Shown here: in pieces, positions 9,629-30,175 of the stretch | Numbering within the stretch: the stretch's first letter is position 1 | How the letters are laid out: each line of letters starts with the position of its first letter | DNA from: Thermoanaerobaculia bacterium | Lineage (GTDB): Bacteria > Acidobacteriota > Thermoanaerobaculia > UBA5066 | DNA: 64,000 nt | Direction: 5' to 3' | NCBI GenBank assembly: GCA_044229475.1 | Contig: JBGASW010000002.1 | Coordinates: 743,517 to 807,516 of the forward strand | Made by a program: the position numbers and the translations under genes | Notes under the pieces: model-generated | Told to the model about the DNA's origin: nothing | The model's database searches: none | What the model saw: only the letters and a program-made list of their open reading frames with translations

Positions 9629-9652
9629 CGTTCTTGGCATGCGTTTCCGTTG

Positions 9653-9680
9653 TTGACACGGAGTTTTCTTTGAATATAGA
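9653..9680 (+). promoter_or_regulatory. Sigma70-like promoter TTGACA-N16-TATAGA for the downstream TonB-dependent receptor
   Basis: TTGACA 9653-9658 and TATAGA 9675-9680 in an AT-rich intergenic island. An AT-rich motif copy (gagttttctttgaatat) occupies the spacer. Confidence 0.55.
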
Positions 9681-9735
9681 GTTCATAAAACAAACCGATT
9701 GTCCGGTTTTGCGGCGGGTGCCGCAGGAGGAAACG

Positions 9736-12519
9736 ATGCCCAGAGGCCGCCGCCCCTTCCTGCTTTCGAAGAATCTTCTTCCTCTCCTTGTTCCGGTCCT
9801 CCTCCTCGCGGCGCCGCGCGTCTCGGCGCAGACGGCCGCCGCGACACTCGAGGTCGTCGCGACGGACGCCGCGGGCGCGCCGGTGCCGGGCGCCAGCGTC
9901 GAGGCGAAGAGCTCCGGCACGGGGCTCACCCGAACCGGCGTCACGGGCGTGACGGGCATCGCGAAGTTCGCCGCGCTGCCCACGGGCACGTACGACGTGA
10001 CCGTGAAGCTGCAGGGATTCGAGACCGTCGCGCAGAAGGGCGTCGTCCTTCGCGTCGGGCAGACGGGACGCGTGAACGTCACGCTCGCCCAGCGGAAGGC
10101 CGCCGAGGTGAGCGTCGTCGCCTCGGCGCCGCTCGTCGACGTTTACAAGATCGACTCCTCGACGAACGTCTCGCCGGAGCAGATCCGGGATCTCCCGACG
10201 CCCGACCGCGACTTCCAGAACCTCGCGTTCATCGCGCCGACCGTCGAGCGCGAGCGCGGCGCCTTCCGGTTCGTGACGGGCGGCCCCGTCATCGGCGGAG
10301 GCGGGAACGCGAGTCAGTCGACGATCCTCGTGGACGGCGTCGACTTCACGGACCCCGCCCTCGGGCTCGCGAAGACGAAGTTCTCGCAGGACGCGATCTC
10401 CGAGTTCCGCGTCATCAGCAACCGTTTCGACGCCGAGGTCGGCGGATCCGCGGGCGGCGCGCTCTCGGTTCTGACGAAGAGCGGCACGAACACGCTCTCG
10501 GGAACCGCCTTCGGCTTCTACCGCGGCCCGAACCTGCGCGCCAGGGGCGCCTTCGAGCAGGACTCCACCGTCGACTACGAGCGCAACCAGTTCGGCGCGA
10601 CCGTCGGCGGCCCGATCGTGAAGGACCGGACGTTCTTCTTCGGCTCGATCGAGCAGGTCAACGCGACGACGCCCACGCTCTTCCGCCCGAAGGGAGCGTT
10701 CACGTCCCAGGCGGCCGACTACAAGGTCCCCATCCACCAGACGCTCGGGTACCTCGGCCTCGACCAGACGCTTTCCGAGAACAACCACCTCATCGCGAAG
10801 CTCGACTACGAGCGCTTCCGCCAGGACAACTTCCGCGTCGGCGGCGTCGCCGCCATTGATTACGGCCAGGAGCTGAACCGCGACAACCTGACGTTCGCCG
10901 TCGGCGACACGTGGAACCTCGGCAACGGCTCCGTGAACGAGGCGCGCGCCCAGTACGGCTCGCGCAAGTACGAGGAACCCACGAACACCGCGAGGATGGC
11001 CGAGTGGTACTCGAGCGGCAACACGCTCCAGACCGGCGGCAACATTCTCGGCAACCTCCTCGGCGACGGCACGCAGTTCGAGTTCCGCGACACGCTTTAC
11101 CTCCATTTCACGGGCGCGGGCTCGCACGACGTGAAGGTCGGCGCGGGCGTCCAGCGCGTGATCGACCGCTCGCGGATCACGACCTACGAGTACGGCCTCA
11201 TGCTCTACCTCACGGACTCGAAGGCCCTCCCGCTCGCGTACGCTTACGGCATCGGCTCGGCCGACGTGAAGGCGAACACGACGCGTCTCGCCGCCTACGT
11301 GCAGGACGACTGGCGCCCCGTCTCGAACCTCACGGTGAGCCTCGGCGTGCGCTACGACTACGACTCGGGCGGCAACAACCCGAACATCTACCAGCCGAAC
11401 CTCGGCCTCGACGGCCGCCCGATCGACACGAACAACTTCCAGCCCCGCCTCGGCATCTCGTGGGACATCACGGGGAAGGGCCAGTACGTCGCCCGCGGCG
11501 GCGTCGGGATGTTCACGGGACGCTACCTCCTCGTCCCGGCGTTCACCGAGATGCAGCAGAACGGCTACACGGGCCGCGTGACCTACACGAACATCAACGG
11601 CGCGCTCCTCGGGTTCCCGGCCTTCGCCCTCGACCCGAACAACCCGCAGAACACGGGCATCAAGTCCAAGCCCGCCGTCACGGTCATCGACAAGACGCTC
11701 GATGCGCCCGAGTCCACGCAGGCGACGCTCGGCTTCACGGCGAAGCTCGGGCAGACGGGCCTCTACGCGGACGTCGAGGGCATCTACATGAAGGGACGCA
11801 AGGAGATCACGGTCACCGACCGCAACTGGAGCGGCAACGCGTCGCACACCCGGCCGAACACGGCGTTCGACCAGATCAACACGTACACGAACGACGGCCG
11901 CTCCGAGTACATGGCCGCCGTGTTCTCCCTGAACGGCAACATCAAGGGCGGGCACGTCGTGACGGCGTCGCTCACGCTCGCGTCCAAGCACAACATCTCC
12001 GACGACTTCAGCCCCGAGTTCCCGACGGGCTACCCGAACGACCCGGCCAATCTGGAGGCCGAGTACGGCCGCGCCCGCTCCTGGGAGCGGTACCGCGTCG
12101 TCATCTCGGGCATCGCGCGGCTGCCGTGGGGCATCAACGTCGCCCCGGTCTTCGAGTACGGCGCCGGCCAGCCGTGGACGCAGCGTCTCGGCTACGACTA
12201 CAACGGTGACGGAAAGAACTCGGACCGCCCGGCGGGCGTCTCGCGCTTCGCCGAGGACGGCCCGGCCTACCGCAACGTGAACATCCGCATCTCGAAGATG
12301 TTCAACGTCAGCGGCATCGGCGTCGAGCTGATCGCCGAGTGCTTCAACCTCTTCAACACGGTCAACTACGACGTGACCTCGATCGACGGCGCCCGGTACC
12401 TGTCGGGACCGACGATCGCGAACCCCAATGCCCCCGCGAACCCGAATCCGAACTACGGCGCGGCCTCCGCGACGCTGTCGCCGCGCGAGGGCCAGATCGG
12501 CCTGAGGGTGTCGTTCTGA
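9736..12519 (+). CDS. TonB-dependent receptor-like outer membrane protein with N-terminal carboxypeptidase-regulatory-like domain
   Basis: RBS AGGAGG then ATG 9736. Signal peptide. N-terminal domain VVATDAAGAPVPGASVEAKSSGTGLTRTGVTGVTGIAKFAALPTGTYDVTVKLQGFE. Long beta-barrel-type sequence ending ...GLRVSF (terminal Phe). Confidence 0.8.
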   Translation: MPRGRRPFLLSKNLLPLLVPVLLLAAPRVSAQTAAATLEVVATDAAGAPVPGASVEAKSSGTGLTRTGVTGVTGIAKFAALPTGTYDVTVKLQGFETVAQKGVVLRVGQTGRVNVTLAQRKAAEVSVVASAPLVDVYKIDSSTNVSPEQIRDLPTPDRDFQNLAFIAPTVERERGAFRFVTGGPVIGGGGNASQSTILVDGVDFTDPALGLAKTKFSQDAISEFRVISNRFDAEVGGSAGGALSVLTKSGTNTLSGTAFGFYRGPNLRARGAFEQDSTVDYERNQFGATVGGPIVKDRTFFFGSIEQVNATTPTLFRPKGAFTSQAADYKVPIHQTLGYLGLDQTLSENNHLIAKLDYERFRQDNFRVGGVAAIDYGQELNRDNLTFAVGDTWNLGNGSVNEARAQYGSRKYEEPTNTARMAEWYSSGNTLQTGGNILGNLLGDGTQFEFRDTLYLHFTGAGSHDVKVGAGVQRVIDRSRITTYEYGLMLYLTDSKALPLAYAYGIGSADVKANTTRLAAYVQDDWRPVSNLTVSLGVRYDYDSGGNNPNIYQPNLGLDGRPIDTNNFQPRLGISWDITGKGQYVARGGVGMFTGRYLLVPAFTEMQQNGYTGRVTYTNINGALLGFPAFALDPNNPQNTGIKSKPAVTVIDKTLDAPESTQATLGFTAKLGQTGLYADVEGIYMKGRKEITVTDRNWSGNASHTRPNTAFDQINTYTNDGRSEYMAAVFSLNGNIKGGHVVTASLTLASKHNISDDFSPEFPTGYPNDPANLEAEYGRARSWERYRVVISGIARLPWGINVAPVFEYGAGQPWTQRLGYDYNGDGKNSDRPAGVSRFAEDGPAYRNVNIRISKMFNVSGIGVELIAECFNLFNTVNYDVTSIDGARYLSGPTIANPNAPANPNPNYGAASATLSPREGQIGLRVSF

Positions 12520-12521
12520 AC

Positions 12522-13286
12522 ATGCGCGTCGCGATCGTGACGGGAGGCGCCGCCGGCATCGGCCGCGCCACGGCCGTGCGGTTCGCCCAGGGCGGCTGCG
12601 CCGTGTCCGCATGGGACGTGGACGAGGCGAAAGCCGCGGCTCTCGTTCCCGAGCTCCAGGCGGCGGGCGCGCCCGCCGCCGAGGCCCGGAAGGTGGACGT
12701 CGCGGATCCTGCGGGCGTCGCGGCGGCCGTCGGAGAGGTCCTCTCTCGCTTCGGGCGGATCGACGTTCTCGTGAACAACGCCGGGATCGTGAAGGACTCC
12801 CAGCTCGTGAAGTGGAAGGACGGCGCCGTCGTCTCGACGATGTCGGACGGCGACTTCGACAAGGTCGTCTCCGTCAACCTCAAGGGCGTCTTCAACTGCA
12901 CGCGCGCCGTGGCCCCGGCGATGATCAGGCAGGGGAGCGGCGTCGTCCTGAACGCGTCGTCCGTCGTGGGCCTCTACGGCAACTTCGGCCAGACGAACTA
13001 CGCCGCGACGAAGGCGGGGGTCATCTCGTTCACCCAGACGTGGGCCCGCGAGCTCGGCAAGTTCGGCATCCGCGTGAACGCGGTCGCGCCGGGTTTCGTC
13101 GCGACGGAGATCATCCGTGCGATGCCCGAGAAGGTCATCTCGGGCATGGTCGCGAAGACTCCCGTCGGCCGGATGGGCAGGCCCGAGGACATCGCCGAGG
13201 CGTATTTCTGGCTCGCGTCGGACGCGGCTGCGTTCGTCCACGGCGCGACGCTCTCCGTGGACGGGGGGCTGGTGCTCGGAACATGA
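12522..13286 (+). CDS. fabG: 3-oxoacyl-ACP reductase (SDR family)
   Basis: MRVAIVTGGAAGIGRA... TGxxxGxG. Catalytic YAATKAG (YxxxK). NNAG motif. Confidence 0.9.
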   Translation: MRVAIVTGGAAGIGRATAVRFAQGGCAVSAWDVDEAKAAALVPELQAAGAPAAEARKVDVADPAGVAAAVGEVLSRFGRIDVLVNNAGIVKDSQLVKWKDGAVVSTMSDGDFDKVVSVNLKGVFNCTRAVAPAMIRQGSGVVLNASSVVGLYGNFGQTNYAATKAGVISFTQTWARELGKFGIRVNAVAPGFVATEIIRAMPEKVISGMVAKTPVGRMGRPEDIAEAYFWLASDAAAFVHGATLSVDGGLVLGT

Positions 13287-14278
13287 GCCGGTCGGCCCGG
13301 ATCGTCTCGACCGGCTCCTACCTGCCGGAGATCGAGGTGTCGAACGATGCGCTCCGGGCGCGCTTCGACGCGGGCACGCCGGAGTTCGTCGACAAGATGG
13401 AGGCCGCGACCGGCATCAAGACCCGCTGGTATGCGCCGCCCGACTGGGCGACGTCCGATCTCGCCGTGCGCGCCGCCCGAAAGGCTCTCGACGCGGCCGG
13501 GAAGACGCCCGCGGACGTCGACCTGATCCTCCTCGGGACGGACTCGCCGGACTTCATCACGCCCGCGACGTCCGTCGTCATCCAGCACAAGCTCGGGGCG
13601 AAGAACGCGGGGACGTTCGACGTCGGCTGCGCGTGCGCCTCGTTCCCGACGTGTCTTGCGACCGCGGCCGGCCTCATCGCGACGAACAAGTCGCTCAAGA
13701 CGGTCGTCGCGATCGGGGCATACATGATGCACAAGCTCACCGACCCGGACGACCCGATGATCTTCTTCTTCGGGGACGGAGCGGGCGCGGCCGTGCTCGA
13801 GCCTTCCGAGACGCCCGGCTTCGTCGCGTCGGGGTTCCGCGCGGACGGGTCGTACAACCGCAACTGGGCGATCCTGTCGGGCGGCACCGACGAGCCGGCC
13901 TCGCTCGAGTCCGTGAAGGCCGGCCGCACGACGGTCAAGCTCGTCGAGCGCTACCCGCCCGAGCTCAACAACGAGGGCTGGCCGAAGCTCGTGCGCCAGA
14001 TGGCCGCGGACGGCGGGTTCGCCGTCTCCGAGATCGACATGCTCATCCTGACGCAGGTCAGGCGGCCGACGATCGAGCTCGTCATGCAGGACCTCGGCCT
14101 GCCGATGGAAAAAACCCACGTCGTGATGGACAAGTGGGGCTACACGGGCTCGGCGAGCGTCGCGATGGCGTTCGACGACGCCCGTGCGCAAGGCAAGGTC
14201 AAGACCGGCGACCTCGTCGTCTTCGTGGCGTCCGGCGTCGGCTACAACATGGCGGGCGCCGCCTTCCGCATGGTCTAG
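13283..14278 (+). CDS. KASIII (FabH)-like protein with degenerate catalytic triad (Cys retained, His->Thr, Asn->Tyr)
   Basis: ATG overlaps fabG stop (ATGA). FabH-like along its length (GSYLPE..., FDVGCACASF active-site Cys, FGDGAGAAVL). In place of HQAN and GNTSAAS it has LTQVRR and GYTGSAS. Confidence 0.8.
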   Translation: MSRSARIVSTGSYLPEIEVSNDALRARFDAGTPEFVDKMEAATGIKTRWYAPPDWATSDLAVRAARKALDAAGKTPADVDLILLGTDSPDFITPATSVVIQHKLGAKNAGTFDVGCACASFPTCLATAAGLIATNKSLKTVVAIGAYMMHKLTDPDDPMIFFFGDGAGAAVLEPSETPGFVASGFRADGSYNRNWAILSGGTDEPASLESVKAGRTTVKLVERYPPELNNEGWPKLVRQMAADGGFAVSEIDMLILTQVRRPTIELVMQDLGLPMEKTHVVMDKWGYTGSASVAMAFDDARAQGKVKTGDLVVFVASGVGYNMAGAAFRMV

Positions 14279-14291
14279 TCTGCGAGGCACC

Positions 14292-15263
14292 GTGCCGCGC
14301 GCCGCGAAGGTCCTCCTTGCCCTCGTCGCCGTCCTCCTCGTCCTCGGGGCGGCCGCGGGAGTGGTCTTCTGGAAGAGGCCCCTCGCGACGCTCGCGTGGA
14401 TCGGCCGCCGGCGCCTCCGGGCGTCCGGCTTCGAGAAGCACGTCCGGCCTTCCGCGGCCGGGCCGCAGGTCGTGTTCTCCGGCGGCGGCGGAGCGCCCGT
14501 CGTTCTCGTCCACGGCGCCGGAGACCAGGCCGGCGGCTGGTCGAAGGTGGCTCCGCGCCTCGCGAGGAGCTTCTCGGTCGTGGCCGTGGACCTCGCCGGG
14601 CACGGCGAAAGCGCGCCGGAGAGGGGTCCGCTGCCGTTCGCGACGCTCCTCGCCGGATTCGACGGCGCCATGGGGACGCTCCCGCAGGGGAAAGTCACTC
14701 TCGTCGGGAACTCCCTCGGTGCGTGGATTGCGACGGTCTGGGCGACGCGGCATCCCGACCGGGTGAGTCACCTGGTGCTCGTGAACGGCGGGCCGCTCCT
14801 CGGCGACCGCCCGGACCTCACGCTCCAGCCGAAGACGCGCGCGGAGGCGGACCGGACTCTCGCGGCTCTGCGCGACCCGTCGGCCCCGCTGGTCCCGGAC
14901 TTCGTGGTCGACGACGTCATCCGCGAGGCCGCCACGGGGCCGATCGCGCGGATCGCCGCGGAGGCGAAGGGCATGTCCGCGTACCTGCTCGACGGCAAGC
15001 TCTCGGGGCTCGACGTCCCGGTGGACCTCCTCTGGGGGGCGTCGGACAAGCTGCTGTCGGTCGACTACGCGAAGCGCCTCGCCGGCCAGCTCCCGGCCGC
15101 GCGTCTGACGACGATCGAGCGCTGCGGTCACGTGCCCGCCGTCGAGTGCCCCGACCGCTTCACGGAGGCGCTCCTGAAGATCCTCAAGGACCCTCTGCCC
15201 GAACCGACCGTCTCCTCGCCGCCGGTCGCCGCGCCCGCCGCCGCGGCGGCGCCGAAGCCGTGA
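14292..15263 (+). CDS. Alpha/beta-hydrolase fold protein (membrane-anchored)
   Basis: GTG start. N-terminal TM helix. VLVHGAGDQAGGW and nucleophile elbow GNSLGAW. C-terminal His region. Confidence 0.8.
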   Translation: MPRAAKVLLALVAVLLVLGAAAGVVFWKRPLATLAWIGRRRLRASGFEKHVRPSAAGPQVVFSGGGGAPVVLVHGAGDQAGGWSKVAPRLARSFSVVAVDLAGHGESAPERGPLPFATLLAGFDGAMGTLPQGKVTLVGNSLGAWIATVWATRHPDRVSHLVLVNGGPLLGDRPDLTLQPKTRAEADRTLAALRDPSAPLVPDFVVDDVIREAATGPIARIAAEAKGMSAYLLDGKLSGLDVPVDLLWGASDKLLSVDYAKRLAGQLPAARLTTIERCGHVPAVECPDRFTEALLKILKDPLPEPTVSSPPVAAPAAAAAPKP

Positions 15264-16891
15264 TCTCCGGCGACGTCCTCGGGGAGCGCGCGCGGCTGTC
15301 GCCGGAGAAGACCGCGCTCGTCGAGGTCGCGACGGGACGGCGCTTCACCTATGCGGAGCTGGATGCGCGCGCGAGAGGCGCGGCACGGACGCTGACCGAG
15401 GGGCTCGGCCTGAAAAAGGGCGACCGCATGGCCCTCCTCGCGGGCAATTGCGTGGAGTTCCTCGACGTCTTCTTCGCGTGCGGGAAGAACGGCGTCGTCC
15501 TCGTCCCGCTCAACACGCGCCAGACGGCGGGAGAGCTGATTGGCGTCCTCGAGGACGCAGAGCCGAAAGCGCTGATCTATGGAGCCGCGTTCGAAGAGAC
15601 CGTTGAAGATTTGCTTAGAAAGGTAAGAGGGGTAACCCCGGTTCTTCTCGACGCGCCGGCGCAGCGTGGCGCGAGGGCGGCGGGCGCGCCGAACGCCCGC
15701 ACCACCTTCAAGGAAATCTTCTCTTCTCCTCCAGCGGCGGCTCCTGCCGCCGCTGCAGAAGTCCCCTCTCCCGGCCCGGAAGATCTCTACTGCCTCCTCT
15801 ACACCTCCGGCACCACGGGCAAGCCGAAGGGCGTGATGGTGCCGCACCGGATGGTCGCGTGGAACGCGGTGAACACCGTCGTGTCGTGGCAGCTGCGCGA
15901 GGACGACGTGTCGCCGATCTACACGCCGCTGTACCACGCGGGCGGCCTCGGCGCGTTCCTGACGCCGGTCTTCGCGATCGGCGGGACGATCGTCCTCCAC
16001 GCCGGCTTCGACGCCGCGGAGGTCCTCGCGACGATCGGGAAGGAGCGCTGCACGGTGGTCCTCGGCGTGCCGACGATCTTCCGGATGCTCCAGGAGCACC
16101 CGTCGTGGGCGTCGGCCGACTTCTCCTCGGTCCGCTACTTCATCAGCGGTGGTGCGCCGCTGCCGCTCGACATCATCGAGACGTGGCACCGGCGCGGCGC
16201 GAACTTCAAGCAGGGCTACGGCCTCACCGAAGTCGGCGTGAACTGCTTCGCGATGAGCGTCGAGGAGTCCGTGCGGAAGGCCGGCTCGATCGGCAGGCCG
16301 ATGATGTTCACGGAGGCGAAGCTGACCGGCGAGGACGGGCGGGAGGTCCCGGTGGGCGAGGTCGGCGAGCTCCTCCTCAGGGGCCCGCACGTCTGCCGGG
16401 GCTACTTCCGGAATCCCGAGGCGACGGCGGCGTCGCTCGATGCCGAGGGCTGGTTCCACACGGGCGACCTCGCGAAGAAGGACGAGGACGGGTTCTTCAC
16501 GATCGCGGGCCGCAAGAAGGACATGCTGATCTCGGGCGGCGTGAACGTGTACCCGGCCGAGATCGAGGGTGTCCTCTTCCAGCATCCGCGGGTGAAGGAC
16601 GTCGCGGTCGTCGGCGTGCCCGACGAGAAGTGGGGCGAGGTCGGCGTGGCCTTCGTCGTTCGGAGGGAAGAAGGGAGAGAGGAGAAGGGAGAAGAGAAGA
16701 TTTCTTTGAAGGTAATAGGAGAGATGGCCGAACTGGCGGCCTTTGTCGAGGCGCGCCTCGCGAAGTACAAGGTTCCCCGGGAGTTCATCTTCGTCGCGAG
16801 CCTGCCCCGGACCCCCTATGGGAAAGTCGTGAAGGGTGACCTCCGCTCTCTTTACCTTTCAAAGAAATCTTCAACGAATGAAGCCCGATGA
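15260..16891 (+). CDS. Acyl-CoA synthetase / fatty-acyl-AMP ligase (AMP-binding family)
   Basis: GTG overlaps upstream stop (GTGA). AMP-binding motif YTSGTTGKPKGV, plus YGLTE and the C-terminal KYKVPREFIFVASLPRTPYGKV. Confidence 0.9.
   Translation: MISGDVLGERARLSPEKTALVEVATGRRFTYAELDARARGAARTLTEGLGLKKGDRMALLAGNCVEFLDVFFACGKNGVVLVPLNTRQTAGELIGVLEDAEPKALIYGAAFEETVEDLLRKVRGVTPVLLDAPAQRGARAAGAPNARTTFKEIFSSPPAAAPAAAAEVPSPGPEDLYCLLYTSGTTGKPKGVMVPHRMVAWNAVNTVVSWQLREDDVSPIYTPLYHAGGLGAFLTPVFAIGGTIVLHAGFDAAEVLATIGKERCTVVLGVPTIFRMLQEHPSWASADFSSVRYFISGGAPLPLDIIETWHRRGANFKQGYGLTEVGVNCFAMSVEESVRKAGSIGRPMMFTEAKLTGEDGREVPVGEVGELLLRGPHVCRGYFRNPEATAASLDAEGWFHTGDLAKKDEDGFFTIAGRKKDMLISGGVNVYPAEIEGVLFQHPRVKDVAVVGVPDEKWGEVGVAFVVRREEGREEKGEEKISLKVIGEMAELAAFVEARLAKYKVPREFIFVASLPRTPYGKVVKGDLRSLYLSKKSSTNEAR
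15605..15721. repeat. Convergent motif pair in acyl-CoA synthetase N-terminus (GAAGATTTGCTTAGAAAGG 15605-15623; CCTTCAAGGAAATCTTC 15705-15721)
   Basis: 17/19-nt near-reverse-complementary. Encodes DLLRKV and TFKEIFSS. Confidence 0.65.
16696..16882. repeat. Convergent motif pair at acyl-CoA synthetase C-terminus (GAAGATTTCTTTGAAGGTA 16696-16714; CCTTTCAAAGAAATCTTC 16865-16882), near-perfect 18-nt inverted repeat
   Basis: Arms differ by one inserted base. Encodes EKISLKVIGE and an unusual C-terminal tail LYLSKKSSTNEAR. Confidence 0.7.
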
Positions 16892-17712
16892 GCATGAGCC
16901 AGCCGCTCTTGACACATCGGGTGGACGGCGAGGGCCCCCCTCTCTTGCTCCTCAACGGCGGGATGATGTCGCTCTCGGCGTGGGAGCCGATCGCGCGGCG
17001 CTTCGCCGAGCGGCACCGCGTCATCCGCTGCGACTTCCGGGGCCAGCTCCTCTCGCCGGGCCCTCCGCGCGCGTCCATGGAAGAGCACGCGGACGACGTC
17101 GCGGCGCTCCTCGAATCCCTTTCGGTCGGACCCGTCGACGTGGTGTGCGCGTCGTACGGCGCATACGCGGGGCTCCTTCTCGCGGCGCGCCGCCCCGAAC
17201 GCGTCCGGTCGGTCGTCGCCGCGACGGTGACCGACGTCGCGAGGGAAGGAGACGCCGCGCTCGGCGAGGCCGGCGCTCGCCTGGCGGCGGCGGTTCGCGC
17301 CGCGGCTCGAGGAGGCGACCGGACGGAGGCCTACGACGCGATCGTGGAGCTCGCGTACACCCCCGAGTGGCGCGTCGCCCACGCGGACGAGCTCGCGGCG
17401 CGCCGCGGCCAGGTCGGCCTCCTGCCCGAGACGTGGTTCACGGGACTGGAGGGTCTCCTAGCGGCACTCGACAAGGTCGATCTGAGGCCGGCCCTCGGGA
17501 GGATCTCCTGTCCGGTTCTCGTCGTCGCCGCGGAACGCGACGCCGCGATGCCGCGCGAACGGACGAAAGCCGTGGCGGACGGAATCCCGGTCGCGCATTT
17601 CGTCGTCGTGCCCGGCGCGGGCCATGCTCTCGTCGTCGAACGCGAGGACGAGTTCGTCCTCCTCGTGGAGCGGTTCCTCGCGCGCGTGCACCGCTCCGGA
17701 GGAGCGGCGTGA
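16888..17712 (+). CDS. Alpha/beta-hydrolase fold protein
   Basis: ATGA overlap with the ligase gene. LLLLNGGMMS, VCASYGAYAG elbow, C-terminal PGAGHALVVE. Confidence 0.8.
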   Translation: MSMSQPLLTHRVDGEGPPLLLLNGGMMSLSAWEPIARRFAERHRVIRCDFRGQLLSPGPPRASMEEHADDVAALLESLSVGPVDVVCASYGAYAGLLLAARRPERVRSVVAATVTDVAREGDAALGEAGARLAAAVRAAARGGDRTEAYDAIVELAYTPEWRVAHADELAARRGQVGLLPETWFTGLEGLLAALDKVDLRPALGRISCPVLVVAAERDAAMPRERTKAVADGIPVAHFVVVPGAGHALVVEREDEFVLLVERFLARVHRSGGAA

Positions 17713-18575
17713 GCGCGGCCCCCCCCCCAGCGCCTCTCCGCGAGGGCCGGCTCGTCCACGGCGGGCACGGCTACCACTGGGAGCTCTACGGGGCCGGCGG
17801 CCGCGAGACCGTCTGCCTCTTCAACGGGCTCGCGATGTCCACGAAGAGCTGGCTGTCCTTCCTGCCCGAGCTGACGGGGGAGCGCGACGTCCTCCTGTAC
17901 GACTACCTCGGGCAGGGCGCGTCGGACGACGCGGAGCTGCCGGGCGCGCCGATCTCGTCCTTCGGAGACGCGCTCGCGGCGATCCTGGACGCCGAGGGGA
18001 TCTCCCGGATCCACGCGATCGGTGTTTCTTACGGCGGGTTCGTCGCCGCGGAGTTCGCGCGGCGCCACCCGGCGCGCGCGGCGTCGTTGACGCTCTCCGG
18101 CATCCTCCTGACGCAGGAGACGCTCTTCGCGATGTACCAGGACGTCTCCCTGCGGTTCTACGCGGGCGGGCCGCCCCTCTTCGACCTCTACACCCGGTAC
18201 CTCTACGAGAAGATCTTCGCGGAGGCGTTCGTCGCGCGCGCCGGACCGAAGCTCGAGTCCATGCGCCAGGGCTTCCACGACCGGTACGCGGGGCGCATCG
18301 ACGCGCTCGTGCGGCTCACGAAGGCGCAGGACCCGTTCTTCGCCGCGCTCGGGGAGAACGCGGAGTCCTACGCGGCCATCCCGTGCCGGGTCCTCGTCCT
18401 CGCGGGCGCCGAGGACCGTGCGATTCCGCCGCCCCAACAGCGGAGAATCCCGACCGTGATCCCGCATGCCGTCTACGAGGAGATTCCGGGCGCCGGGCAC
18501 GTCGTGTACCTCGAGAAGCCCGAGGTGTTCTGGCCGCGCGTGCGGCGGTTCCTGACGGGGACCGAGGCGGTCTAG
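17709..18575 (+). CDS. Alpha/beta-hydrolase fold protein. A C10 tract lies 8 nt after the start codon
   Basis: GTG overlaps upstream stop (GTGA). VCLFNGLAMS, GVSYGGFVAA elbow, PGAGHVVYLE. Confidence 0.75.
   Translation: MSAAPPPAPLREGRLVHGGHGYHWELYGAGGRETVCLFNGLAMSTKSWLSFLPELTGERDVLLYDYLGQGASDDAELPGAPISSFGDALAAILDAEGISRIHAIGVSYGGFVAAEFARRHPARAASLTLSGILLTQETLFAMYQDVSLRFYAGGPPLFDLYTRYLYEKIFAEAFVARAGPKLESMRQGFHDRYAGRIDALVRLTKAQDPFFAALGENAESYAAIPCRVLVLAGAEDRAIPPPQQRRIPTVIPHAVYEEIPGAGHVVYLEKPEVFWPRVRRFLTGTEAV
17719..17728 (+). repeat. Homopolymeric C10 tract inside the 5' end of a hydrolase CDS (potential slipped-strand phase-variation site)
   Basis: gcc ccc ccc cca read as AAPPPAP. A +/-1 change would frameshift the gene. 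Confidence 0.6.
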
Positions 18576-19228
18576 CGGCGCGCGCGGGAGAGAGGGACGG
18601 GGGCGGACGCCGCGAGCCGTTCCTCTTTCAGGACCCCGTGCCGCAGGATCTCGGCGATCTCGCGGATCACGAGGTCGCTGTCCTTGCCGAACTGCACCGG
18701 GACGCCGAAGAGGATCTCGACCGCGTAGTACTGGAGGAAGACGCGGCTCGCGAGCATGACCGCGGTCGGGACCGGCACCCCCGGCCGGATCTCGCCGGAG
18801 ACGGAGTCGCCGTGCGACACGAGGAACCGCTCGAAGCGCACGGCCATCTCGGAGTAGAACTTGCGGATGTGGTTTCCGGAGAGCTCCACGACGTCGACGT
18901 AGATGAGCGCGACGTGGCGTCTCCAGACGCGGACGCTCTCCTTGGCGGCTGCGGCCAGCTCCTCGAGGTTGTCGGGGAACGTTCCGGACGCGAGCGCCTT
19001 GTTGAACGGGAAGTCCGGGCTCTCGATCGCCTTCCAGTACTGGCCGAGGACCGTCTGGAAGATCGTCTCCTTGTCGGCGAAGTGGTGGTAGACGTTCCCC
19101 GTGGAGACTCCCGCGCGCTCCGCGATGTCGCGAATGCTCGTCCCGCGGTACCCCTGGCTCGAGAAGAGGTCCAGCGCGGCCTCGAGGATGGCCTTGCGGC
19201 TCCTCTCGGACTTCTTGTCCTGCTCCAC
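18572..19228 (-). CDS. TetR-family transcriptional regulator
   Basis: N-terminal HTH: RSRKAILEAALDLFSSQGYRGTSIRDIAERAGVSTGNVYHHFADKE. Confidence 0.9.
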   Translation of the reverse strand: MEQDKKSERSRKAILEAALDLFSSQGYRGTSIRDIAERAGVSTGNVYHHFADKETIFQTVLGQYWKAIESPDFPFNKALASGTFPDNLEELAAAAKESVRVWRRHVALIYVDVVELSGNHIRKFYSEMAVRFERFLVSHGDSVSGEIRPGVPVPTAVMLASRVFLQYYAVEILFGVPVQFGKDSDLVIREIAEILRHGVLKEERLAASAPVPLSRARR

Positions 19229-24262: not shown

Positions 24263-26426
24263 TCAGCGGTAGGGCACGTCCATCGCGACGTACGCCCCGT
24301 CGCCGGTGCGTTCGCCCGGGTTCCCGCCGTCGTTCACGACGAGGTACGACGTGAATCTGTTCACCCCCCCCGTGCGCGTGACCTTCACGTAGCCGCTCGA
24401 GATCCCCGGCGCAAACGCCGCGAGGAACCCGTTGATCTGGACGAATCCGCCGGCCGCGATTCCCGCGAGGCGCGGGTCGTCCACGGTGGCCGCGAGGGCG
24501 CCCGTCGTCCCGTCGTAGACGTCGAGATGGAGCGTGATCGGCGCGGCGTCGAGGTCGCCGAGGTTCACGAACGCGAGGTTCGACCGGTTCGTCGCGTCCT
24601 GCCGCGCCGCGTAGATCCACGTCGCGTAGGGAGCGCCTTCCGCGGCGCGCACGGACGGGTACGCGACGCCGAACTTGCCCTGCCCCGCAACCGCGGACGA
24701 CGTGCGCGCGACGACGACGAGATCCTGCACGTTCATCGACGCGTCGAGCTCGTTCAGCGTGACGACGGCGACGCCGAGAGGGTTCGCGAGGGAGCCGCCG
24801 AACGAGGAGGCGCGGCAGAAGGCGATGAAGTCCTGGAAGTAGACCTCGCCCTTCGCCGGCACGGCGAAGCCGATCCCCGCGGGAATCGGGCAGGACGGGC
24901 AGAGGAGGGACGCGACGATGTTCCGCGTGACGTCCCCGACGTTGTAGATCGTGAGCTCCGTCCGGTAGGTGCCTGCCTCGACGACGGACGGGATCGTGAC
25001 CGTCGAGCGGGTCGCGGTGGCGGGGTCGACGGGCAGGACGAAGGAGCCGTCGCTGTTGACCTGGTCGTTCTGGACGGCGTACGCGTAGAAACGCGCGGTC
25101 CCGCCGACGACTTCGACCTTGGCCCCGCCGGAGTAGTTCTCCGGCAACCCCATCTCGGCGGAGGAGAACTGGCGGAAGCCGCCGGGAGGCAGCGTGACGT
25201 CGGGCAGGATCCCGAACGTCCCGCCGGTCGTGTTGTAGAGCGTCACCCGGAGCGTGACGTTCCCGTCCGCCGGCGCGCCGGCATTCTGGAGCGCGAGATT
25301 CGTCCTGACGCCCGAGGTGCTGAAGGCGAGGGAGGGGAGATAGACGGTTCCCGTGAACGTCCTCTCGACCGGCACGCCCGCGTAGGAAAGGCCGGCGCGG
25401 CCCACCGGGTTCGTCGTGTCCGTGGCCGTGCGCACCGTGACGGCGGCCGCGTCGTTCGAGGAGAGCCCGGTGAACGTGACGCGGAGCGTCCCGAGGCGCG
25501 TACCCGTCGCGTCGATCGGAAGGCCCTGGAGGCCGAGAAACGCGATCGCGTCCGCCTCGACGCGCTGGCGGCCGGGGGCGAGCGTGAAGGCCGCGGCCGT
25601 CCCGGAGCCGCCTCCGGAACTCGCCGTGTACTGCATCGTGACGGTCGCGGTCGTCGTCCCGCGGTTCGTGAACGTGATCTCGGACGAATACTGGTTCTTG
25701 AGGACGACGGGGACGAAGAGAGTCCGCGTGCCCGTGTTCGTCGTGCCGAAGGCCGTCGCGCCGACGCCGGTCAGGTTCGCCGCGCCCGTGCCGTCGGTCG
25801 CGTCGCCGTCGAAGTGCCAGACGTCGAGGAGCCCCGTCGCACTCGACGCGACGGGCGCCCACATCGTGCTCTTGATCTCGTTCGCGGTCCGGGCCACGTT
25901 CCAGATCCGCACCTCGTCCACGAGGACGGGCGACTGGAAGTTCCAGTTCGCGTCGCTCCCGATCCGGAGCGGGTTCGTGCTGGGCGTCGGGGCGCCGCCG
26001 TCGGCCTGCGAGCCGGCGAGGACGCCGTTCAGGTAGTGTCGGCGCGTCGCGCCGTCGGTCGTGACGGCGATGTGAGTCCACGTCCCCACGGGGATCTGAC
26101 CGGACGTGAACGCACTGGCGGTGCCGCGCGTGTACGAACGCAGAGTGGGCGGCGTCCCCTCCGAGCAGATCCCGATCCAGTAGGACGTGACGTAGCCCTT
26201 GCCGATGAGGCTTCCGCAGTCGGAGGCCGACGGCGTCGCCGTCAGCTTCACCCACGCCTCCCAGGTCCCGGCCGACGCGGGCTGGCCGGACCCGGCGGAC
26301 GGGGCCTGGAAGTACATGCCGCCGTTGCGCGTGAACGTGGCGAAGCCGTCGAACGGCTGGGAGGCCGCAGGCGCGACAACCGCGAGCAGGGTGGTCAGGA
26401 CCGCTCCGAAAAAAGCTCTCTTCATG
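24263..26426 (-). CDS. Secreted LamG/concanavalin-A-like lectin domain protein with long Thr/Gly-rich beta-rich C-terminal region
   Basis: ATG rc 26424-26426 with GGAGG RBS. Signal peptide [22 protein letters not shown]. LamG-like segment WEAWVKLT...HIAVTTDG...LRIGSD...[11 protein letters not shown]. Remainder of minus ORF 24263..28717 is shadow. Confidence 0.8.
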
Positions 26427-26545
26427 GAGCCTCCGTTGAGACATTGTCTCACCCTTTTGGGGCCCTGATGCGCCCGCATCATCGGGAGGCGCGGAATGCC
26501 GGGACTAAGATTCATCGCCCGGTTCAGGAAGAAAGGAAGACACGC

Positions 26546-28801
26546 GTGAGCTTCACCAAACAGGACGCCCTCGACTACCACTCGACGGGCCGCAAGGGAA
26601 AGCTGGAAGTCGTCCCCTCCAAACCCTGCGCAACCGCCCGCGACCTTTCGCTCGCCTACACGCCCGGCGTCGCCGAGCCGTGTCTCGAAATTGCCCGGGA
26701 CCCCGAGCTCGTCTACGAGTACACCGGCAAGGGGAATCTCGTGGCCGTCATCTCGAACGGCACCGCCGTCCTCGGTCTCGGCGACATCGGCGCGGCCGCC
26801 GGCAAGCCGGTCATGGAAGGCAAGGGAGTCCTGTTCAAGAGGTTCGCGGACGTCGACGTGTTCGACATCGAGGTCGCCGAACACGACCCCGACAAGCTCA
26901 TCGAGTGCGTCGCCCGCCTCGAGCCCACGTTCGGGGGCATCAACCTCGAGGACATCAAGGCGCCCGAGTGCTTCTACATCGAGGAGCAGCTCAAGAAGCG
27001 CATGGGGATCCCGGTCTTCCACGACGACCAGCACGGGACCGCGATCATCTCGGCCGCGGCGTTCCTGAACGCGCTCGAGATCGCGGGCAAGAAGATCGAG
27101 GACGTGAAGGTCGTGTTCGCGGGCGCGGGCGCGGCCGCCGTCGCCTGCGCGAACCTCTACATCACGTACGGCGTGAAGCTCGAGAACATCCTCATGGTCG
27201 ACCGCACCGGCGTCATCTGGAAGGGCCGGACGGAGAACATGAACGAGTACAAGGAGCGATTCGCGCGCGACACGAAGAAGCGCACGGTCGCCGAGGCCCT
27301 CGAGGGAGCGGACGCGTTCATCGGCGTTTCGGCCGCGAAGCTCATCAACGGCGACATGATCAAGAAGATGGCGAAGGACCCGATCGTCTTCGCCATGGCG
27401 AACCCGGTGCCCGAGATCCTCCCGGAGGAGGCAAAGGCCGCGCGGCCCGACGTGATCATGGCGACCGGCCGCTCCGACTACCCGAACCAGGTCAACAACG
27501 TGCTCGGCTTCCCGTTCATCTTCCGCGGCGCCCTCGACTGCCGCGCCACGCAGATCAACGAGGCGATGAAGCTCGCCGCCTCCAAGGCCCTCGCGAACCT
27601 CGCGAAGGAGGACGTCCCGGACTCCGTCGCCCGCGCGTACGGCGTGGACGGCTTCAGGTTCGGCCGGGAGTACCTGATCCCCAAGCCCTTCGACTGGCGC
27701 GTGCTCCTGCACGTTCCGCCGGCCGTCGCGCAGGCCGCCGCCGACACCGGCGTCGCCAAGAAGCCGATCAAGGACATGGAGGCGTACAAGCGGAAGCTCG
27801 AGGGCATGCTCTCGCGCTCGCGCTCGTTCATGCAGGTCATCCACGGCAAGGCCAAGGGCGATCCGAAGCGCGTCGTCCTCGCCGAGGGCGACCACCCGAA
27901 GATCCAGCGTGCGGCCAAGATGCTCGCCGAGGAGGGGCTCGCAAAGCCGATCCTCCTCTCGCGCGGGAAGAAGGCCGAGGCGGCCCTCAAGGCCATGGAC
28001 GTCAAGGTGCCGATCGAGGTCATCGACCCGGAGACGCACCCGAACTACGCGAAGTACGTCAAGGCCTTCCACGAAAAGCGCCGGCGCAGCGGCGTGACCC
28101 TCGAGGACGCCGAGCACACGCTGCGGTCGCGGAACTACTTCGCCGGGATGATGGTCGACCAGGGCGACGCGGACGTCACTCTCTCGGGCCTCACGGCGTC
28201 GTATCCGGACACGATCAAGCCGGCCCTCCAGACGATCGGCGTCGCGGCGGGCGTCAAGAAGGTCTCGGGCCTCTACGTCCTCATCCTCCAGGATCGCACG
28301 TTCTTCTTCGCGGACACGACCGTGAACATCGATCCCACGGCCGAGGACCTCGCCGAGATCGCGCTCCTCTCGGCCGACACGGCGAAGCTGTTCGGGATCC
28401 TGCCGCGCGTCGCCATGATCGCGTTCTCGAACTTCGGCTCGACGGTGCACCCGGAGACGAACAAGGTGCGCGAGGCGGTCAAGCTCGTCAAGCAGCGCCG
28501 CCCGGATCTCGAGTGCGACGGCGAGATGCAGGCGGACACGGCCGTCCTTCCGGAGTTCCTCAAGGAGCACTACCCCTGGACGGACCTCAAGGGCCCGGCA
28601 AACGTCCTCGTCTTCCCCGAGCTCCAGAGCGCGAACGCGGCCTACAAGCTGGTCTGGCGCCTCGCGAAGGCCGACGCCATCGGGCCGATCCTCATGGGGA
28701 TGAGCAAGCCCGCGCACGTCCTCCAGCGGGGCGTCGAGGTCGCCGACATCGTGAACATGGCGGCCTTCGGCGTCGTGGACGCCCAGGCGCGCAAGAAGTA
28801 G
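26546..28801 (+). CDS. maeB: NADP-dependent malic enzyme (malic enzyme domain fused to phosphotransacetylase-like domain)
   Basis: GTG 26546 after GAAAGGAAG. Malic enzyme motifs ([29 protein letters not shown]) and a C-terminal PTA-like domain. 3' part of ORF 24527..28801. Confidence 0.9.
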
Positions 28802-28808
28802 CTCCCGG

Positions 28809-28848
28809 CCACGCGGCCCGCCCGTCCGTTACGATGCGGGCCGCGTGG
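28809..28848 (+). terminator. Perfect 13-bp GC-rich inverted repeat (CCACGCGGCCCGC ... GCGGGCCGCGTGG, 14-nt loop) just after maeB stop. Putative terminator hairpin
   Basis: Arms are exact reverse complements. No U-tract. Confidence 0.5.
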
Positions 28849-28941
28849 ACATCCTCACGACCGGCTGCGGGCTCCTCGCCGCGTACTCGGCGATCCCGGC
28901 CCTCGACGCATTCCTCCGCTGGCGGCGCCTGATGGCGCCGC

Positions 28942-28953
28942 GGGGGGGGGGGG
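28942..28953. repeat. Homopolymeric G12 tract in the intergenic region upstream of the EPS glycosyltransferase operon
   Basis: Twelve consecutive G about 155 bp upstream of GT2 start 29108. Confidence 0.6.
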
Positions 28954-29053
28954 CGCGCGGCCGGAGGGCCGCGCGCCCGGGAAGCTCCTCATCGTCGTTC
29001 CCTCGCGGGCCGAGGGCGCGAGAGTCGGCGATCTTCCGGGCGATGTTCGAAGA

Positions 29054-29211
29054 GAGATTTCTTTGAAGGAGAATACGGCAGCCGCTGCCAGCGGCGCCGC
29101 GCCTGTGATGCCTCGGGTGCACGTCGACGTTCTCGTCGTTCTGGACGGCCCCGACGCCGATGCCGAGGCCCGTCTCAAAGCGGACGGCGTGGATTACCTT
29201 TCTAAGAAATC
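29054..29211. repeat. Convergent motif pair bracketing the GT2 start codon (GAGATTTCTTTGAAGG 29054-29069 upstream; CCTTTCTAAGAAATC 29197-29211 inside the CDS)
   Basis: 14/15-nt reverse complementary, about 150 bp apart, start codon 29108 in between. Confidence 0.65.
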
Positions 29212-30175
29212 TGCCGGTCCGGCGAAGGGAGACGCACTGGCGTTTCTCGCCGAGCAAATGGACGACCGGCTGGATGCCTACGATTTCATCCTCGTCTTCG
29301 ACGCCGACATGCGTTTGCCCGAGGGCTTCTTCCGCGACCTCCGCGTGCCCGGGGGGACGGAGGCGTTCCAGCTGCCGGTCCGTCCTTCGGGCGTCCCGGC
29401 GCCGGGCGCGCCGCGCGTCGAGGCGCTGTCGCTGGCCGAGGCTCGCCTCGACGACCTCGCACGCGACGCGGCGGGCCTTCCCGTGCGCCTGCGCGGCAAG
29501 GCGATGGGCTTTTCGCCGCGGGCGTTCCGCCTCGGCCCGGCGGCCGCGACGCGCACGACCGCCGAGGACTCCGAGGCGACGCTCGCGCTCCTCGCCAAGG
29601 GAATCGTCGTGCGCGCGCTGGACGGGCCAATGGCCTTCGACGAGCCGTCGTCCGACGCGGGCGCGATGGGGCGCTCCCGGGCGCGCTGGTTCGGCGGGCA
29701 CATGAAGCTGCTTTTCTCGGGTCTTGGAGATCTCGTTCGGAGCTTCGTGAGGCGGCCGGTCGGGACTCTCGTGCTGGCGGCGGATCTCTGGCTCCGTCCG
29801 AGGATCTTTCTGCTTGGGACCCTCGCGTTTCTTGCAGGCGCCTCGGATCTGGCGATGGTGGTTTTTTCTTCGAGTGGCGCGTGGTCTGCCTCGGCGCATG
29901 CAGCCGGCGGCGCCGCGGCGGCCGGGGGCGCGACTGGGGCGGCCATGCCCGTCGCGCTCCTGGTCTGCCTCCTGCTCCTTTCACTCGAAGGGAAGGCGGC
30001 CTTGCTCTTCGAGTGGCTTTCTCTCGCCGCGGTTCGCCATCGCATCGGATTCCCGGCGGAATGTCCCCCTGTTGCTCTCGCCGATCTCTCCGACTCTCTT
30101 CTCGTGTGGGCGGGCGCCGTCGTCCGCGGCGTGCTCGCACCGTCGCGGTGGCATCGCGCGAGGCCCGAGGCATGA
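29108..30175 (+). CDS. Putative family-2 glycosyltransferase with C-terminal membrane helices
   Basis: ATG 29108. VDVLVVLDG...DFILVFDADMRLPEGFF (DxD-like). Hydrophobic C-terminus. Several AT-rich motif copies inside. Confidence 0.55.
   Translation: MPRVHVDVLVVLDGPDADAEARLKADGVDYLSKKSAGPAKGDALAFLAEQMDDRLDAYDFILVFDADMRLPEGFFRDLRVPGGTEAFQLPVRPSGVPAPGAPRVEALSLAEARLDDLARDAAGLPVRLRGKAMGFSPRAFRLGPAAATRTTAEDSEATLALLAKGIVVRALDGPMAFDEPSSDAGAMGRSRARWFGGHMKLLFSGLGDLVRSFVRRPVGTLVLAADLWLRPRIFLLGTLAFLAGASDLAMVVFSSSGAWSASAHAAGGAAAAGGATGAAMPVALLVCLLLLSLEGKAALLFEWLSLAAVRHRIGFPAECPPVALADLSDSLLVWAGAVVRGVLAPSRWHRARPEA

Follow-up and report, generated by a model that had tools for sequence, protein, structure and literature searches.

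The ten consecutive C's read at positions 17719-17728 of the window (the whole 64,000-nucleotide stretch of DNA analysed here, with a G+C content of 70.8%) probably represent an incidental and evolutionarily young homopolymer, which arose by synonymous drift of proline codons, is prone to slippage, and is retained as its in-frame allele. The run lies near the 5' end of an alpha/beta-hydrolase gene, here called hydrolase 3 (Table 1), in the genome of an uncultured acidobacterium of soil or water (Thermoanaerobaculia, Acidobacteriota). An earlier note on this DNA had placed the run at these positions, eight nucleotides into the gene, and had parsed the start as gtg agc gcg gcc ccc ccc cca gcg; both readings were correct, the first C being the eighth nucleotide past the start codon and nucleotide 11 of the open reading frame. 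The frame opened by the GTG at 17709 has a third-position GC of about 0.95, which confirms it as the frame of the tract, and this GTG shares bases with the stop codon TGA of hydrolase 2, the gene upstream, in the sequence GTGA (17709-17712). Relatives keep the GTG(A) start and an 'SA..P..' N-terminus, and homologues begin at the same site ('M/V-S-A-...'); because of this conservation the C10 is truly coding. Codons 4-9 of hydrolase 3 encode APPPAP, with the three prolines at residues 5-7. A role of the C tract in RNA structure or in sequestration of the Shine-Dalgarno sequence was rejected, as no structure beyond chance was found around the tract (z = -0.58).

Table 1. Features of the hydrolase operon and of the glycosyltransferase locus (positions in the window).
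Feature	Position	Strand	Remarks
TonB-dependent-receptor-like outer-membrane barrel	9634..12519	+	961 aa; separated from the SDR gene by 2 nt
FabG-like short-chain dehydrogenase/reductase (SDR)	12522..13286	+	254 aa
KAS III (FabH)-like condensing enzyme	13283..14278	+	331 aa
Alpha/beta-hydrolase 1	14292..15263	+	323 aa
AMP-dependent acyl-CoA ligase-like gene	15260..16891	+	543 aa
Alpha/beta-hydrolase 2	16888..17712	+	274 aa; TGA overlaps GTG of hydrolase 3
Shine-Dalgarno GGAGGAG	17698..17704	+	GTG follows after 4 nt; lies within the end of hydrolase 2
Alpha/beta-hydrolase 3	17709..18575	+	288 aa; GTG start; G-V-S-Y-G nucleophile-elbow motif; last gene of the operon
C10 homopolymer	17719..17728	+	codons 4-7 of hydrolase 3, GCC CCC CCC CCA = Ala-Pro-Pro-Pro
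ATG, sole other in-frame start (Met43) of hydrolase 3	17835..17837	+	would yield a 246-aa truncated product
TetR-family regulator	18572..19228	-	convergent; 4-nt overlap with the end of hydrolase 3
GT2 glycosyltransferase gene	28845..30175	+	split at the G tract: frame 0 before, frame 2 after
G12 tract	28942..28953	+	frameshifts the GT2 gene in the window; longer than C10

Gene coordinates and junctions bear out the description of hydrolase 3 as the last of six translationally coupled genes: four of the junctions are 4-nt overlaps (ATGA/GTGA) and one is a 13-nt gap. The gene for the outer-membrane barrel upstream may be the first gene of the unit. Gene order is retained in relatives, and homologues come from Thermoanaerobaculia/Acidobacteriota MAGs. 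The NCBIfam matches of the operon proteins were only generic (FabG, FabH, acyl-CoA ligase, PcaD/BioH-like), all below the equivalog level, and no operon protein reached an NCBIfam equivalog cut-off; the label 'lipid operon' given earlier is thus plausible but no more than generic. Because SDR, KAS III-like, alpha/beta-hydrolase and AMP-ligase genes stand together, an OleABCD-type olefin or beta-lactone cluster was also considered, and was rejected as no Ole models appeared among the NCBIfam matches of the operon proteins. The N-terminus of hydrolase 3 carries no visible signal peptide, and from its sequence the protein is predicted to be a generic cytoplasmic hydrolase, outside the surface and restriction-modification functions in which contingency loci are typically found. 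In the related strains P0043 and P0149, hydrolase 2 and hydrolase 3 were called as one fusion owing to a frameshift near the end of hydrolase 2, and in another locus (L035, 9001-9566) hydrolase 3 would start with CTG and is internally deleted (residues 53 to 147). Either long-read indel errors or genuine decay of the two genes could account for these fusion calls and changes.

Ten identical bases make the tract physically prone to slipped-strand mispairing, and the claim that a slip of one base in either direction frameshifts hydrolase 3 holds for both directions. A tract of C9 or C12 leaves a peptide of 54-55 aa from the hydrolase 3 start (54 aa for C9), while with C8 or C11 a nonsense reading frame of about 600 aa continues through the TetR gene in antisense (600 aa for C11); only C10, or length changes by three bases, encode the enzyme. 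The sole alternative start, Met43, falls inside the Pfam alpha/beta-hydrolase domain, which begins at residue 34, and within the conserved 'VCLFNGLAMS' strand, so that a product begun there would lack the first part of the domain. With no usable alternative start, frameshift mutants would be null for the hydrolase.

Classical contingency loci are poly-G/C tracts in surface and restriction-modification genes of Campylobacter, Neisseria and Haemophilus, and such tracts are kept across strains while their length differs between closely related isolates. The C10 resembles them in its length (8 or more), its 5'-proximal position in the open reading frame and the all-or-none expression that slippage would bring about; a slip-prone length (about 7-9 or more) inside a reading frame and a one-base dependence of the on and off frames are both present. 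It differs from them in that the tract is not kept up across strains, its length is nearly uniform among samples, and the gene encodes neither a surface nor a restriction-modification function. That the C10 is a genuine contingency locus, at which reversible slippage switches the terminal hydrolase and creates subpopulations with different end products of the operon, is a reading which we consider unlikely. It gains from a tract length within the hypermutable range of known systems (for high-GC bacteria, PMC10334774) and from a 5' position at which both off frames abolish hydrolase 3, and it has to contend with the lack of any obvious benefit from stochastic switching of a cytoplasmic metabolic enzyme.

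Tract lengths in public assemblies bear most directly on this reading. In the assembly collection, 82 blocks index the exact 288-aa hydrolase 3, which was seen on 64 contigs, and the upstream hydrolase 2 product was on 60 contigs. The truncated call from Met43 (246 aa), which is the gene call expected if the tract is out of frame, is on record for one contig. This contig (L069, SRR22038625, 1191 nt) carries C11 and is otherwise identical to the window; two sister runs (SRR22038623 and SRR22038624) carry C10. Variation in tract length thus amounts to 1 of 65 contig-level calls, counts that rest on assembly consensus and are blind to minority length variants within populations. Look-ups through the neighbouring genes (hydrolase 2 and TetR, 24 contigs each), which are unbiased for tract length, gave the same picture, as all contigs shown or summarised carry C10 and the 288-aa gene. 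The number of indexed blocks (82 for the 288-aa product, 78 for hydrolase 2 and 169 for TetR) was also considered as evidence and set aside as not decisive, since the shorter TetR gene is more often complete on short contigs.

The C10 itself was seen by direct reading in 14 different samples, drawn from many unrelated projects. Loci carrying it are 99.7-100% identical to the window over 3-9 kb, and C10 also persists in strains (L010-L012) that depart from the window elsewhere, by a 12-nt indel or by 3 SNPs. No contig breaks at the C10, whereas most do so at this genome's G tract. A scan of JGI metagenomes with the flanks of the tract and a variable gap (GCGTGAGCGCGG N6-14 AGCGCC...) returned no match, and the clone is therefore absent from that collection. 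More than 14 unrelated SRA/ENA/NCBI projects yielded assemblies of the same clone (99.7-100% identical over 3-9 kb; window 11709-33820 against loci L001-L013 and L058-L076), which points either to a very widespread and almost clonal population of Thermoanaerobaculia or to a shared source.

Long-read assemblies are prone to error in homopolymers, and the related long-read MAGs P0043, P0149 and P0121 have frameshifted calls nearby, so we weighed whether the tract length is an assembly or sequencing artefact. Such an origin is extremely improbable: the C10 is exact in 14 independent samples and, by protein identity, on 64 contigs (Logan, ENA, NCBI). Artefact is excluded for the C10 and is possible for the single C11 contig. 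One short contig, probably of low coverage, cannot separate an in vivo mutant from slippage in library PCR or sequencing. It does give the contingency reading an off-frame allele in an otherwise identical contig, against which stand 64 intact calls; on and off lengths are not both common among these close strains. We infer that the C11 is a sporadic loss-of-function mutant or a library or sequencing slip, rather than a state of a selected switch. The uniform tract length across coverage and related strains that the earlier note had named as speaking against phase variation was nearly what was found, with 64 contigs on one side and the one C11 contig on the other.

A comparison with about 18 relatives with readable DNA (75-91% amino acid identity, and more distant ones; the nearest strains P0142, P0147 and P0148, 93-97% identical, are outside this set) bears on how the tract arose. 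At the tract position the longest C run among these relatives is 6, and their N-terminal segment is encoded by mixed CCG/CCT/CCC/CCA codons, so the C10 appears lineage-specific and young. In the closest relative with DNA (L038, 89%), the identical AAPPPA is encoded as GCC GCC CCT CCC CCC GCG, and the window differs from it there by synonymous changes only. Within the close clade the N-terminal segment is rich in Pro and Ala and varies in sequence and by whole codons, with variants such as SAAPLPAPL, SAAHPPAPL, SATAPSAPL, SAAPPAPAPL and others. Truncated calls in P0036, P0037 and P0042 (about 245 aa, 'MSTKSW' start) were considered as off alleles and rejected from the case of P0036, whose DNA (L014) has an intact GTG start and no frameshift, the truncation being the choice of the gene caller. 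The tract is absent from all relatives examined instead of being maintained in related lineages, which speaks against a contingency locus, as does the fact that codon drift explains the tract. Given 64 intact calls against one truncated call and no long run in relatives, support for an evolved phase switch is weak. The tract is real, lies in the last gene of a coupled operon and can slip, with one variant seen, but the proposal that it is a phase-variable switch is not supported.

Very GC-rich genomes make long C/G runs by chance from polyproline and polyglycine codons, and we calculated how often this is expected here. Under Markov models of order 1-5, 64 kb should hold 0.035-0.26 G/C runs of 10 or more. 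Shuffles that keep the proteins and permute synonymous codons, which we regard as the more relevant null, give 0.33 such runs over the 15.7k codons of the window, with at least one run in 28% of shuffles. Codon usage (CCC 33%, GCC 37%) is in keeping with this outcome. A G/C run of 10 or more is thus unusual for one window, yet several to tens should be expected per genome by codon chance. In these respects the C10 is like the incidental homopolymers of polyproline and polyglycine stretches: it is made of Ala-Pro-Pro-Pro codons, a run of at least its length arises in 28% of shuffles, and it is interrupted in relatives. It is unlike typical members of that class in that its ten bases make it long for the class, runs are otherwise depleted in this genome, and the other PPP motifs use CCG. 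For G/C runs of 7 or more, coding sequence holds 2, against 10.0 predicted by synonymous-codon shuffles of the 15.7k codons, and this depletion suggests that selection or a context-dependent choice of codons acts against homopolymers here. Given that general avoidance of runs, the C10 stands out as an exception, and such an exception could in principle be maintained by selection, a point in favour of the contingency reading. A further run of eight C's (G8 on the coding strand) lies at 24364-24371 near the 3' end of a minus-strand gene with a Laminin_G_3 domain, and has equal length in the NCBI MAG contig of the clone (L058).

Polyproline stalls ribosomes and needs EF-P, and the peptide rather than the DNA might be what matters. 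In that case, the Pro-Pro-Pro at residues 5-7 would be an EF-P-dependent stalling motif which tunes translation of the last gene just after the coupled restart, with the C run only its trace at codon level; this we regard as distinctly improbable. The APPPAP at codons 4-9 and the Pro-rich N-termini of the close clade (PPP, PPPP, PPAPAP) fit such a role. The three consecutive prolines appear poorly conserved, however: they are often broken in relatives (PLP, HPP, PSP or PAP), and the Pro-rich segment is entirely missing from homologues at about 55-65% identity. Furthermore, the segment is free in length and sequence, as expected for a lightly constrained linker.

The preferred explanation, incidental drift, can be put as a sequence of steps. 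Synonymous change of CCT to CCC in proline codons would create the C10 in a short, poorly constrained Pro/Ala-rich N-terminal segment of what looks like an ordinary cytoplasmic alpha/beta-hydrolase; in this genome, GC at the third position of codons is about 95%. Slips of +1 or -1 would then rarely produce mutants, null for hydrolase 3 alone, and in nature the in-frame C10 allele would be kept.

In addition to the C10, the window carries a longer G tract (G12) in a GT2 glycosyltransferase gene, which is the first gene of a GT2-GT1-Bac_transf (sugar transferase family) polysaccharide cluster. In the window, the N-terminal transmembrane helix is read in the frame from the GTG at 28845 and the catalytic part in the other frame, to 30175, whereas GT2 homologues have both parts in one protein ('...LRWRRLAAPRGGARP...ILAVIPSRAEG...'). 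A tract of G7, G10 or G13 would restore a single open reading frame. In the same clone, G7 with an intact 441-aa GT2 gene was found in L059 (7 samples), L060, L061 and the NCBI MAG contig L058, so that the in-frame gene is present in at least 10 samples; the 5-nt gap at the G tract is the sole difference from the window in 6.1 kb. The contig tip L062 (SRR23217739) fits a G tract of 12, contig tips being places that carry errors. The four possible off-state products of GT2 (73, 355, 356 and 370 aa) were not on record in the look-ups. The difference between G7 and G12 shows that tract alleles of this clone are visible to the method used.

Directly 3' of the G tract, and within the GT2 coding sequence, is a perfect 12-bp GC hairpin (28952-28977, GGCGCGCGGCC GGAG GGCCGCGCGCC, z = -2.96). 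Six of ten short-read contigs end inside this hairpin, and the NCBI MAG contig L058 joins unrelated sequence at it. Contig breaks at the G tract were considered as a sign of length heterogeneity and rejected, since the breaks fall in the adjacent hairpin and the tips bear errors. A gene for a MaeB-type malic enzyme-phosphotransacetylase fusion (26546-28801) matches only the NCBI annotation with its GTG start at 26546 (751 aa), and the form with the ATG start at 26468 (777 aa) was not on record in the look-up.

The G tract at 28942-28953 matches the classical contingency pattern much better than the C10 does, and the GT2 glycosyltransferase behaves far more like a contingency gene than hydrolase 3. 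It is a better candidate for phase variation than the C10, unless the G12 of the window is an assembly error. A second tract with on and off alleles in the clone also lends something to the contingency reading of the C10. A broader proposal, that the clone uses 5'-proximal G/C homopolymers as contingency loci, with GT2 as the clearest and the hydrolase C10 as a second member of lower frequency, is possible and can be advanced only tentatively.

A closer parallel for the hydrolase tract itself is found in Mycobacterium tuberculosis, where the 7C tract of glpK and other homopolymer tracts show frameshift variation (PMC10334774; bioRxiv 10.1101/717272). The adaptive status of those tracts was argued from recurrent independent indels above the measured neutral rate, together with phenotypes, the neutral rate being about 3x10^-8 per generation for a 7G tract in high-GC mycobacteria (PMC10334774). 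Like those tracts, the C10 is a coding G/C run in a metabolic gene, and the genome around it is GC-rich; an indel of +1 or -1 would give a null allele that a second slip can reverse. Unlike them, it has one variant contig against 64 intact ones, with neither phylogenetic recurrence nor phenotype.

For GC-rich genomes in general, a run at the 5' end of a gene alone does not make a switch, and counts of intact and truncated products in public assemblies, combined with look-ups via neighbouring genes, are a cheap test of such candidates. If switching at the C10 were real, only the last enzyme of a conserved Thermoanaerobaculia operon would be toggled. More useful is the G7/G12 polymorphism of a polysaccharide glycosyltransferase in the same clone, which offers a testable case of candidate phase variation for an acidobacterium from the environment. 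Should the tentative proposal of clone-wide contingency tracts be true, it would mean homopolymer phase variation in a free-living, uncultured acidobacterium, seen straight from public metagenomes.
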